Positions 6,001 to 9,000 of a DNA stretch of 10,739 bases are shown here, piece by piece. Source of the DNA: a virus (taxonomy: Duplodnaviria; Heunggongvirae; Uroviricota; Caudoviricetes); IMG/VR virus record IMGVR_UViG_2703719365_000002, one strand, 5' to 3'. Within the stretch, counting starts at the first letter, position 1. Each line of letters begins with the position of its first letter. Made by a program: the position numbers.

Positions 6001-9000
6001 CGTGTCGTTGTCTCCGAAGTAAAACGGCTTGGCCTGATGCACAAACGCCCTGACATACGCTCTGAAACCGTCCACGTTTGGCGTTTTCAGTTGCGGGATA
6101 ATTTTCTTCAGGCGGCGTTTTCGTTTCTCGTTGACCGCAACAGCGTGTGGAAGTCTGTCACCGACTTCGGTGTTGTAGGCGTTCAGGAAGGATTCGTAGT
6201 CGATTCGTTCTGCCTTGCGACGTTCAGGTTTAACCTGCCCATCGCCATCCCCGTTAGGGGGTAAGGGGGTATTTGTATTTATTGTCTTTTGTATATTGTC
6301 TTTTGTGTTTAGCTGACTTGGCTTATACCCATTAGCCGACTTGGCTAATGTTTTATTAGCTGTTTTAGCTAATGTTAAGCTGTCCTGGCTAATCCACTGA
6401 GAAACCACCTTGTTCACTCCGATTTTCACGCCATCAGCAATGAGGAATTTACGCTCAATAAGCTGGCGCTTGGCAGCGCAAACATGAGTGTGATGAATAC
6501 CTGTCATGGCTGCTATCTGCGTGTTTGTGAGTCGATCCATCGGCTTATTGAATCCGTATGTCTTGCGCATGATAGCGAGCATCACCTTCAACTGCCGGAC
6601 GGTTAAATCAGCCATCAGCAGACTGTCGGTAATCTCGTTAGCAACGCGCATGAAACCATCTTCGGTATCTGCCACGCGATGCTCCACGACCTCCAGTTGA
6701 GGCCTGTAATCAGCTAACTTAACGACGCCCATGTTTCACTCCTGCTTTGGCTAGTCTGTAAACACCAACAAGGCGCTCTGCGAACGCCCTGTTATTTGCT
6801 GCGGCTACCACTAATCCCTCAGGTGAATCAGGGTGTCGAATCTCTTCTTTTTCCTGGTATTTCTTACGACGTTTTGTCATAATTACTCCTGTGGATTGAT
6901 CCAGTAATTCCCTCAGAATTGCATATCAATTTGCTTAAAATCCTCGGTGGCAGCCGGGGATTTTTTCTTTGTGATTTCATCAAGCGCATACTTAAAAGCC
7001 CTGCTAATCGGACTGATGTCTGATGCCATTCCGAAAGCACACAAGACCGAAGCAATAAACCGCCAGTCCGTTCTGCTTATCTTCGATTCATGACAGCCAA
7101 TCATCTTTGCCAGACCGCGCTGTGTAAGCGTTGACAGGTTGATGAGTAAATCTGTTTCTGCGCGATCAACGTCGCGCTGTGATAGTTTGCTGTAACTTGT
7201 TCGTTCCATTTCTTAAGATTTCCAATAGTGAATAGTTAGTTGAAAGGTATGCGTGGAAACGCATATGGCCTTAGTTGGTCAGATATCTTGGGACTCGCTT
7301 TTCAGCGACGTAGGACGAATGTCCGTTGTTACAAAGAGCGGCTCCGCTTATTAAGCGGCTTTGTGCTCCGGCGGGAACACGTCATCAAGACTTACTTTTG
7401 CGCCTAACTTGTTTAGACACGCAACAAGAGCACGGCATGTTTTAAGGTCTGGGAAGCGACGACCAGATTCCCAATGTCCGATAGCTCCCTGTGTGCATCC
7501 AACTGCCTTAGCAAGTGTTGTTTGAGAGATATTCAGTGACTCTCGATATTTTCGTAGGTTGCTCATATGCCCTCCATAGTAACCACGAATAAAAAATACA
7601 ATATGTACTTCTCAAATACAAGTAAAAATACACATTGTGCATGGATGGTTCCAGTACAGAGCGTAATAATAAGGACATGAAAATGAAATGGTATGAACTG
7701 GCTAGATCCAGAATGAAAGAGCTCGGCATAACTCAAGAGAAGTTAGCCGAAGAGCTAGGTATGACGCAGGGTGGAATTGGACACTGGTTGCGCGGATCTC
7801 GTCATCCATCTCTTAGTGATATTGGTGTGGTGTTTAAATACCTTGGTATTGATAACATATCATTCAACCACGACGGGACATTTTCACCTGTTGGCGAATA
7901 CTCATCGGCCCCAGTTAAAAAACAATATGAGTACCCTGTTTTTTCTCATGTTCAGGCTGGGATGTTCTCTCCAGAACTCAGAACCTTTACCAAAGGTGAT
8001 GCGGAGAGATTGGTAAGCACAACCAAAAAAGCCAGTGACTCTGCATTCTGGCTTGAGGTTGAAGGTAACTCAATGACCGCACCAACAGGTTCCAAACCTA
8101 GTTTTCCTGACGGGATGTTAATTCTGGTTGACCCTGAGCAAGCTGTTGAGCCCGGCGATTTCTGCATAGCCAGACTTGGTGGTGATGAATTTACCTTCAA
8201 GAAACTGATCAGGGATAGCGGTCAGGTGTTTCTACAACCACTAAACCCGCAATATCCAATGATCCCATGCAATGAGAGTTGTTCCGTTGTGGGGAAAGTT
8301 ATCGCCAGCCAATGGCCTGAAGAGACGTTTGGGTAAAGAGGATAGATGGAGTTTAATGGCCATGAGTATCAAGCGGTCAAAAAGAAGTTCATCTATTCAT
8401 TGAAAGCATAAGGCCATCTGAGTATATCCGTAATGATCTGGATATTGTCTATAACATCAATGACCGGACGATAGATATCGGTGAGCAGCGTCCTGTATGG
8501 CAGGGTGAGGCAGGTGAAAAAACGTCCTGCCATCAACAAGAATCAAGTGCATCCGCTCTCTGGACAGATGGAAAATTTATTGGATGCAAAAAGATATGAA
8601 ATAACACCTGTATAGCACGGAGCTTTCTCTGACCGATGCACTTGAAGTTGTTAGGGCTGACCCAGCCTGCTGTTTCTTTAGGTAAGAGAAAAGAGATTTA
8701 GGAGATGAAAGGTCGCAGAGGTGCGGCCTTTTTTATTGAGAGTGGATCTTGAACGGAAATTCTCAAGACTTGAGTCTTGCATGCAAATCAATTCCTGGAT
8801 AAACTCGATCTGAGTCAATAACTTAGAGAGAGAGCAAATGGCAAAGTCAAACGTTAGCGTGCAGGCATTCAAGGACTTCCTTGAAGAGCTTATGTCGCTG
8901 AACATAATGAAGGAGGCCACCGCTCGAAATTTAAAAAACTCATCCGCTCGCCTCTTAACGGTAGTCCAAGAAGAGGAAATGGGTGATGTTACTCAGCTTG

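Follow-up and report, generated by a model that had tools for sequence, protein, structure and literature searches.

The virus record IMGVR_UViG_2703719365_000002 of IMG/VR (Duplodnaviria; Heunggongvirae; Uroviricota; Caudoviricetes) contributes a stretch of 10,739 nucleotides, called ‘the window’ here, that is 100% identical to the early/immunity region of Sp5-type Shiga toxin (Stx) phages (NC_004913, Stx2 II, phage 2851, and the PA series). Between cI and pL/N, the site of rexAB in lambda, and in the same direction as cI and N, lies orf173, better known as ECs1184. A short inverted repeat, CAAGACT-TG-AGTCTTG, overlaps the promoter of this gene (Table 1). An earlier note on this DNA had read the repeat as the operator of a dimeric regulator other than cI, placed before a cargo gene. 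Here, we describe the conservation of its half-sites in 12 related promoters, independently of the adjoining cI, and a similarity in predicted fold between the N-terminal domain of ECs1184 and the core-binding domains of tyrosine recombinases. The repeat is probably a functional protein-binding site of some kind. More specifically, we propose that it is an autoregulatory operator on the self-contained promoter of ECs1184, bound by the ECs1184 product, a reading to which we assign somewhat less than an even chance (roughly 0.45).

The repeat and the ECs1184 promoter

Table 1. Features of the window between cro and N, with positions counted from the first nucleotide of the window.
Feature	Position	Strand	Remarks
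cro and OR operators	7594-7668 (OR)	-	strand is that of cro
cI	7635/7641-8336		same direction as orf173 and N
Non-coding stretch	8337-8837		between cI and orf173
Frameshifted DUF3024 gene remnant	8337-8690	+	downstream of cI; context, outside the operator
Intrinsic terminator	8707-8737	+	GC stem 8711-8728, T-run 8729-8734; -15.9 kcal/mol, z -3.5
Upstream half-site-like ATCTTG	8746-8751	+	direct repeat of the right arm; 2 mismatches to AGTCTT
Inverted repeat CAAGACT-TG-AGTCTTG (proposed operator)	8764-8779		arms 8764-8770 and 8773-8779, 7 nt, perfectly complementary
Half-sites of the repeat	8765-8770; 8773-8778		AAGACT; AGTCTT
-35 hexamer TTGCAT (predicted)	8777-8782	+	3 bp (TTG) shared with the right arm
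-10 hexamer TAAACT (predicted)	8800-8805	+	17 nt after -35
Start-site region and conserved 5' leader CGATCTGAGTCAATAACTTAGAGAGAGAG	8806-8837	+	purine-rich ribosome-binding stretch 8825-8834; GATC 8808-8811
orf173 = ECs1184 (ECs_1184 of Sakai) / VT2-Sap23 / ORF23 of Sp5 / phrog_2602	8838-9359	+	173 aa
Intrinsic terminator downstream of orf173	9661-9682	+	8-pair stem, 6 GC pairs, T-rich tail
OL/pL	9823-9897		annotated operators and promoter
N	10016-10360		annotated; downstream of OL/pL

The repeat had been described as a perfect 16-bp palindrome. Its location and its perfect 7-bp arms stand, but the structure is 7+2+7, because the central TG is not self-complementary. The overlap with the -35 element is as described, the right arm sharing TTG with TTGCAT. 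The predicted promoter matches 7 of 12 consensus positions and was not picked out by a promoter scan; we take it as real because it is conserved across the gene family, rather than from start-site mapping. Judged from spacing only, transcription would start at about 8812-8813, which places the centre of the repeat at about -40.5 or -41.5. The 5' leader, CGATCTGAGTCAATAACTTAGAGAGAGAG, is nearly invariant in relatives from Salmonella, Cronobacter, Yersinia, and Proteus, while most of the spacer between -35 and -10 differs. Folding predicted no stable RNA structure in the leader (8806-8837), and its constraint may reflect translation or a further binding event.

The site has the symmetric or repeated half-sites of a promoter-overlapping operator, both in its own 7-nt arms and in the extra hexamers of its relatives. 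Repeats with perfect 7-nt arms and a spacer of at most 4 nt are found 10 times in the window (the same intragenic repeat being counted twice), against 3.7 +/- 2.2 in dinucleotide shuffles, and inverted pairs of 6 nt are common (12 within 301 nt). The perfect repeat itself has a single match in the window, where 0.01 are expected. In the 60.9-kb VT2-Sakai genome, which was searched for further copies as the earlier note had proposed, the promoter repeat is the sole site at 0 or 1 mismatch; a looser scan (AAGACT-N0-6-AGTCTT, at most 2 mismatches) gave 13 hits against 16 expected, the only perfect one at the promoter. A site that is unique in the phage genome fits self-regulation. Single AAGACT hexamers occur in the window at chance level. 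An exact scan of IMG/VR with the 14-mer was uninformative, 116 of its 120 hits lying in unrelated contexts, as expected by chance. A second candidate, an intragenic 8+2+8 repeat (TTCAAGGA-CT-TCCTTGAA, 8868-8885), was rejected as the product of mirror-image codons (F-K-D / F-L-E) whose synonymous sites are not kept in relatives.

Two natural variants affect the same promoter. One viral contig (L109, IMGVR_UViG_2663763028_000004) has AGTCTTACAT in place of AGTCTTGCAT; the G-to-A difference, at window position 8779, affects the TTG of -35 as well as the outermost base pair of the repeat. One complete genome, that of Escherichia coli strain 150 (L085, NZ_CP028592.1), has a 136-bp deletion, corresponding to about 8690-8825 of the window, between the direct repeats TAAGAGA / TTAGAGAGA. 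The terminator, the repeat, and the -35 and -10 hexamers are lost, and the ribosome-binding stretch and ECs1184 are retained, so that ECs1184 is fused to the cI transcript in what amounts to a natural promoter-less variant.

Half-sites in related promoters

Loci of relatives were drawn from contigs encoding homologues and from IMG/VR, and about 30 distinct upstream regions were aligned by anchoring on the -10 hexamer. Most of them have TTG with a 17-nt spacer; in several, TTG lies one base earlier and the spacer is 18 nt. The -10 hexamer is TA(A/G)A(C/A)T in nearly all, reading TAAACT, TAGACT, TAGAAT, or TACACT, the exceptions being AAAAAT (Serratia) and TATTAT (L069). It is the TTG of this family-conserved arrangement that the repeat overlaps.

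In the window's own clade, clade A, AAGACT (or AAGATT/ATGACT) stands opposite AGTCTT (or AATCTT), directly 5' of TTGC. The carriers are the window, Salmonella phage Oslo, L209/L210, Cronobacter L004/L006, Yersinia L007, L038, L211, Proteus L003, Morganella L206, and the metagenomic locus L017. Between lineages of clade A, the upstream flanks cannot be aligned, nor can most of the spacer between -35 and -10; neutral positions are therefore saturated, and selection is needed to account for the retained left arm. This arm cannot be explained by the -35 hexamer, because it lies 9-15 nt upstream and is not A/T-rich in the manner of an UP element. The half-sites are thus conserved in orthologous promoters beyond the neutral expectation, whereas the two bases between the arms in the window group are free (TG in the window, CG in L209/L210). 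Such conservation across genera, on the promoter of the 173-aa gene, bears out the operator-like character proposed for the repeat, as far as sequence comparison carries.

The hexamer also recurs within the same promoters. In L004, L007, L017, and L211, AAGAyT recurs between -35 and -10, exactly 9 nt beyond the right arm; L017 has a complete second palindrome over its -10 hexamer (duplication P<0.003); and the Proteus and Morganella promoters have an upstream direct repeat of AAGATT and a copy of AGTCT(T)GG 5' of -10. In all, the 12 promoters contain 47 hexamers within one mismatch, where the remainder of the same loci predicts 8; the count serves for description only, since the promoters are related and part of the matches overlap. 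In the window group, (A/G)ATCTTG lies 27-28 bp upstream of the right arm and is kept in Oslo, L209, and L210 (as AATCTTG), while the 11-12 nt separating it from the palindrome differ at many positions. This element is the core of TCTTGA, which had been paired with TCAAGA across 10 nt as a second inverted repeat at 8746-8767. The pair exists, at 8747-8752 and 8763-8768 and hence one base off, but as a separate symmetric operator it does not hold: N10 becomes N9 in phage Oslo, for which reason ATCTTG is better called a third half-site, and 6-nt arms are at chance level.

The arms are 1 bp apart in Yersinia, Cronobacter, Proteus, Morganella, and L211, 2 bp apart in the window group, and 4 bp apart in L017, a variation that a rigid form of the dimeric regulator supposed at the outset fits poorly. 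Elsewhere in the family, Serratia relatives have AGTCTT as a direct rather than an inverted repeat, and L018 has another direct repeat, ATTCATGGA.

In Citrobacter, Salmonella, Cronobacter, and Shigella boydii, hosts that partly coincide at genus level with those of the window's clade, there is a sister clade (about 44% protein identity) whose promoters have a different inverted repeat, of 13 bp, GGATTCATCGATC ... GATCGATGAATCC. This repeat, too, straddles the -35 element, its right arm beginning within TTGATC and extending into the spacer. Its arms co-vary: among nine distinct promoters, 88% of cells are paired, and four pairs have changed on both sides (11 such cells). The covariation score is 0.263 against 0.102 in shuffles, 0 of 500 of which scored as high, and slid controls were all far lower. 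Because the hosts overlap and the repeats differ, the sequence of the repeat follows the protein lineage and not the host. From these comparisons, a promoter repeat appears to be the rule in the family.

These data also bear on the simplest alternative, that no dedicated regulator is involved, the right arm being the -35 hexamer plus its context, the left arm serving promoter strength or persisting as a hitch-hiking remnant, and the two arms being symmetric by coincidence. A 7+2+7 repeat is within chance for the window and the promoter region, TTG is common to the right arm and the -35 hexamer, and clade A has no compensatory changes, only conservation or single mismatches. Against this stand the left arm, kept amid unrelated adjacent bases although it is 9-15 nt upstream of -35 and not A/T-rich, the reappearance of the same hexamer elsewhere in the same promoters and in other orientations, the duplication of the whole palindrome in L017, and the arm covariation of the sister clade. 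We consider this alternative unlikely.

As a side observation, four of the aligned loci (L004, L006, L007, and L038) have a promoter-like site, TTGAC-N17-TATACAGT, about 60-125 nt upstream of the homologue start. It overlaps a LexA-box-like CTGA-N8-ACAG and is directly followed by a terminator (AACCCTCTGATGAGGGTTTTTTT), which suggests a very short SOS-controlled transcript; the arrangement is absent from the window.

The ECs1184 protein and other candidate binders

Full-length relatives of ECs1184 at 41-83% identity are found in Salmonella, Cronobacter, Yersinia, Proteus, Providencia, Morganella, and Serratia. A profile search returned 629 clusters at 50% identity, and the best 150 representatives are nearly all about 160-200 aa long. 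PADLOC and NCBIfam gave no match for ECs1184, and PADLOC no exclusion or defence signature. A structure predicted from a 71-sequence alignment (pLDDT 81) has an N-terminal domain of four helices (residues about 8-95, with pLDDT mostly 92-96), then a disordered linker (about 103-127) that is acidic in the window's close relatives and near neutral family-wide, and a beta-beta-alpha unit (130-168, pLDDT 84-88); with 173 aa and only this unit after the linker, the model has no catalytic domain. The N-terminal domain has, in the model, the four-helix fold of tyrosine-recombinase core-binding (SAM-like) domains, and autoregulation by ECs1184, raised in the earlier note, gains support from this resemblance.

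The recognised unit would be the hexamer AAGACT (AGTCTT on the other strand). The window has it as an inverted pair with 2 bp between the copies, of which the right one has TTG in common with the -35 hexamer, and as a weaker third copy about 28 bp upstream. The binder would most likely be ECs1184, the only partner that always travels with the repeat, and its N-terminal fold is that by which tyrosine recombinases hold on to the arms of core sites. The small C-terminal domain, which could hold two or more copies of ECs1184 together, would be connected to this domain through some 25-30 disordered residues; DNA-binding heads so loosely tethered would accommodate half-sites that differ among relatives in spacing and orientation. 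A protein bound over -35 (in relatives also over the spacer and -10) would hinder RNA polymerase and so produce negative feedback. Repression is the likelier outcome, because relatives have half-sites within the spacer and over -10, positions from which a bound protein has to keep polymerase away.

Several points weigh against this proposal. The repeat by itself falls inside chance expectation: when the 60-nt promoter region was searched liberally, an equal 7-bp repeat turned up in 22% of shuffles (P ~0.22). Being unremarkable alone, the repeat cannot carry the functional claim, which must therefore rest on the other evidence. The right arm overlaps -35, so the promoter itself explains part of its conservation. 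The arm spacings of 1, 2, and 4 bp are awkward for a classical dimer and make the assumption of a flexible linker necessary, and a centre near -41 would suit an activator too, so the predicted sign of regulation may be wrong. The core-binding assignment rests on the modelled fold: the Pfam profile Phage_int_SAM_1 reaches 14.4 bits where 22.3 is the cutoff (E 0.047), Foldseek against PDB returned nothing significant (best E 0.09), and neither did a profile search of PDB sequences (3nrw, E 1.9). ECs1184 is acidic (pI 4.85, net charge of the N-terminal domain about -3; family median pI 5.1), which is unusual for a DNA binder, though not disqualifying. Finally, the most conserved motif of the family, TARNLKNS, is invariant across clades with different repeats. 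Residue 83 is M in alignments of proteins with AAGACT-type promoters and T in those with the Serratia and L018 types, with too few independent changes for this to count as evidence.

Could a host regulator common to Enterobacterales bind instead (e.g. a response regulator with GA...TC half-sites, such as RcsB), linking ECs1184 to host physiology? All hosts of AAGACT-type promoters are Enterobacterales, and the centre of the repeat lies near -41, where class II activators sit. The left arms of relatives (TAAGAC/TAAGAT) are, moreover, reminiscent of the RcsAB box, the consensus of which is TAAGAATATTCCTA. However, a fixed host dimer should not tolerate half-sites 1, 2, or 4 bp apart, the best match to the RcsAB consensus in the region has 5 of 14 mismatches and is equalled by 36% of shuffles, and sister-clade genes in the same host genera have another repeat at the same promoter position. 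The consensus strings of LexA, CRP, Fur, MetJ, DnaA, and RcsAB have no match in the region better than shuffles. The best match to any known regulator is an FNR-like string with 2 mismatches at 8778-8791, equalled by 6% of shuffles and situated in the non-conserved spacer; the original statement that the repeat matches none of LexA, CRP, Fur, and FNR is right as to good matches. A literature search for the repeat found no paper containing it, and a paper on the small RNA HnrS proved to have no relation to the element. Altogether, control by a host regulator appears improbable.

Another regulator of the same phage (cI, Cro, or CII) is a far poorer candidate, even though the site belongs to the immunity region and cI ends about 430 bp before it. 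The annotated cI operators at OR and OL read AAgTACA-N3-TGTAcTT, an element to which the repeat is unrelated, as had been noted; the best match in the region, with 6 of 14 mismatches, was rejected as a cI/Cro operator of Sp5-type phages, and a lambda CII-type TTGC-N6-TTGC was not found there. Furthermore, the module travels unchanged among phages of different immunity. Two Yersinia loci, L007 and L009, have an identical 172-aa protein and an identical promoter beside cI proteins without detectable similarity (BLASTP E 0.14). In almost all loci recovered across the family, the homologue is flanked by the LexA-type cI and the N gene of a lambdoid prophage, with varying types of cI and Cro, and a few homologues adjoin AlpA or DinI instead, without cI nearby. 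Taken with the conservation of the half-sites across genera, this suggests an operator independent of cI, as the earlier note had supposed. Least credible of all is that the repeat works as a hairpin, either as RNA in read-through transcripts or as a cruciform: despite its complementary arms and the loop-like variation of its spacer, it folds at only -5.6 kcal/mol (z -0.34; 62 of 200 shuffles are as stable), a loop of 1-2 nt does not suffice, the repeat is situated 5' of the predicted start and beyond a strong terminator, and clade A keeps the sequence of the arms, not merely their pairing.

Two further candidates were rejected. An intrinsic terminator or structured RNA is contradicted by the same folding values, by the lack of a U-tract, and by the absence of an Rfam hit at the repeat. 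A core-type site of a tyrosine recombinase does not fit arms that are 1-4 bp apart, compared with a crossover region of 6-8 bp, or a protein without a catalytic domain.

Autoregulation by ECs1184 would have familiar counterparts. As with lambda cI at OR/pRM and P22 Mnt/Arc, short symmetric sites lie over a core promoter element directly 5' of the gene of a small, putatively DNA-binding protein, and the sequence of the site follows the protein lineage and not the host. Unlike in those systems, the putative binder has no helix-turn-helix or ribbon-helix-helix domain, its half-sites vary in spacing and orientation, and the site, the only one in the phage, has no divergent lytic promoter under its control. 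The recombinase-derived master repressors MrpR/YopR (SPbeta) and SroF (phi3T) of Bacillus phages have a whole integrase-like fold of about 320 aa, whereas ECs1184 has only a core-binding-like domain, joined to a small and unrelated C-terminal domain, and occurs in enterobacterial lambdoid phages together with a normal LexA-type cI. In AraC-type regulators, the DNA-binding domains are flexibly tethered. By analogy, a flexible linker between dimerising and DNA-binding parts would explain the varied direct and inverted half-sites; ECs1184 has no sequence or fold relationship to these proteins, and its C-terminal dimerisation is an assumption.

Neighbourhood, lysogeny, and implications

NC_004913 is a Stx1-converting phage, and identity to VT2-Sakai is 100% across the sub-regions queried. 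The module of gene plus promoter is found in 234 of 5,426 complete E. coli genomes. The remnant downstream of cI shares 81% DNA identity with the DUF3024 gene of 933W (L0084) and of ST160, and a tblastn search with a Proteus DUF3024 protein matched it in two frames, with a stop. The order cI-DUF3024-orf173 is intact in Proteus and Morganella prophages, and an intact DUF3024 gene lies directly upstream of an ECs1184 homologue in two non-lambdoid contexts also; from this adjacency, the two may be an ancestral gene pair. The terminator at 8707-8737 shields the ECs1184 promoter from cI read-through. It is kept in phage Oslo with changes at two loop positions only, and other relatives have a different terminator in its place.

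Elsewhere in the window, an 83-aa open reading frame downstream of N (10419-10670, +) is ECs1180, for which PADLOC and NCBIfam gave no match. Rfam placed a C4 antisense RNA (1130-1213, -; 66.7 bits) and an isrK Hfq-binding RNA (1239-1315, -; 74.7 bits) above their gathering scores.

ECs1184 resembles lambda rexAB, HK022 nun, and 933W stk in map position, in sharing the direction of cI, in its own promoter and flanking terminators, and in cassette exchange between phages of different immunity. Its own promoter and terminators and its place between cI and pL are those of a moron. By contrast, dispensability for prophage maintenance, which rexAB, nun, and stk have, is contradicted by the literature: Mondal et al., making in-frame deletions of Sp5 genes in a K-12 lysogen, could not obtain those of ORF21 (ECs1180) and ORF23 (ECs1184), and judged that their loss appears lethal and that the genes are probably required for stable lysogeny (PMC5155283). 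In addition, ECs1184 was quantified in a 2025 study of the RNA interactome, in Sakai cultures that had not been induced, with an RNA enrichment at a false discovery rate of 0.065 and a labelling assay no better than the GFP control (PMC7618764). The protein is thus made in lysogens, and the label of mere cargo is doubtful.

The ECs1184 promoter points towards pL and N, with only the terminator at 9661-9682 between. Speculatively, an in-frame deletion that abolished self-repression could let transcription run past this stem into N and kil, in keeping with the lethality reported. On a broader and more doubtful view, the ECs1184 family would consist of DNA binders derived from core-binding domains, lacking a catalytic domain and regulating themselves via flexibly arranged hexamers, and ECs1184 would be, in Sp5, a second, cI-independent factor keeping the prophage quiet.

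As a kind of feature, the repeat is an ordinary promoter operator; what makes it interesting is the protein that probably binds it and the connection with a gene of a Stx phage whose resistance to deletion is unexplained. Sp5-type phages carry Shiga toxin in E. coli O157:H7, and the systematic deletion study left the non-deletability of ECs1184 unexplained, for which a DNA-binding fold and a 16-bp candidate target can now be offered. Should ECs1184 not be the binder, there would still be a conserved promoter-associated site indicating another regulator. If ECs1184 does bind its own promoter, a cI-independent control point would be added to the lysogeny region of toxin phages, and a prophage protein family widespread in Enterobacterales would gain its first function.

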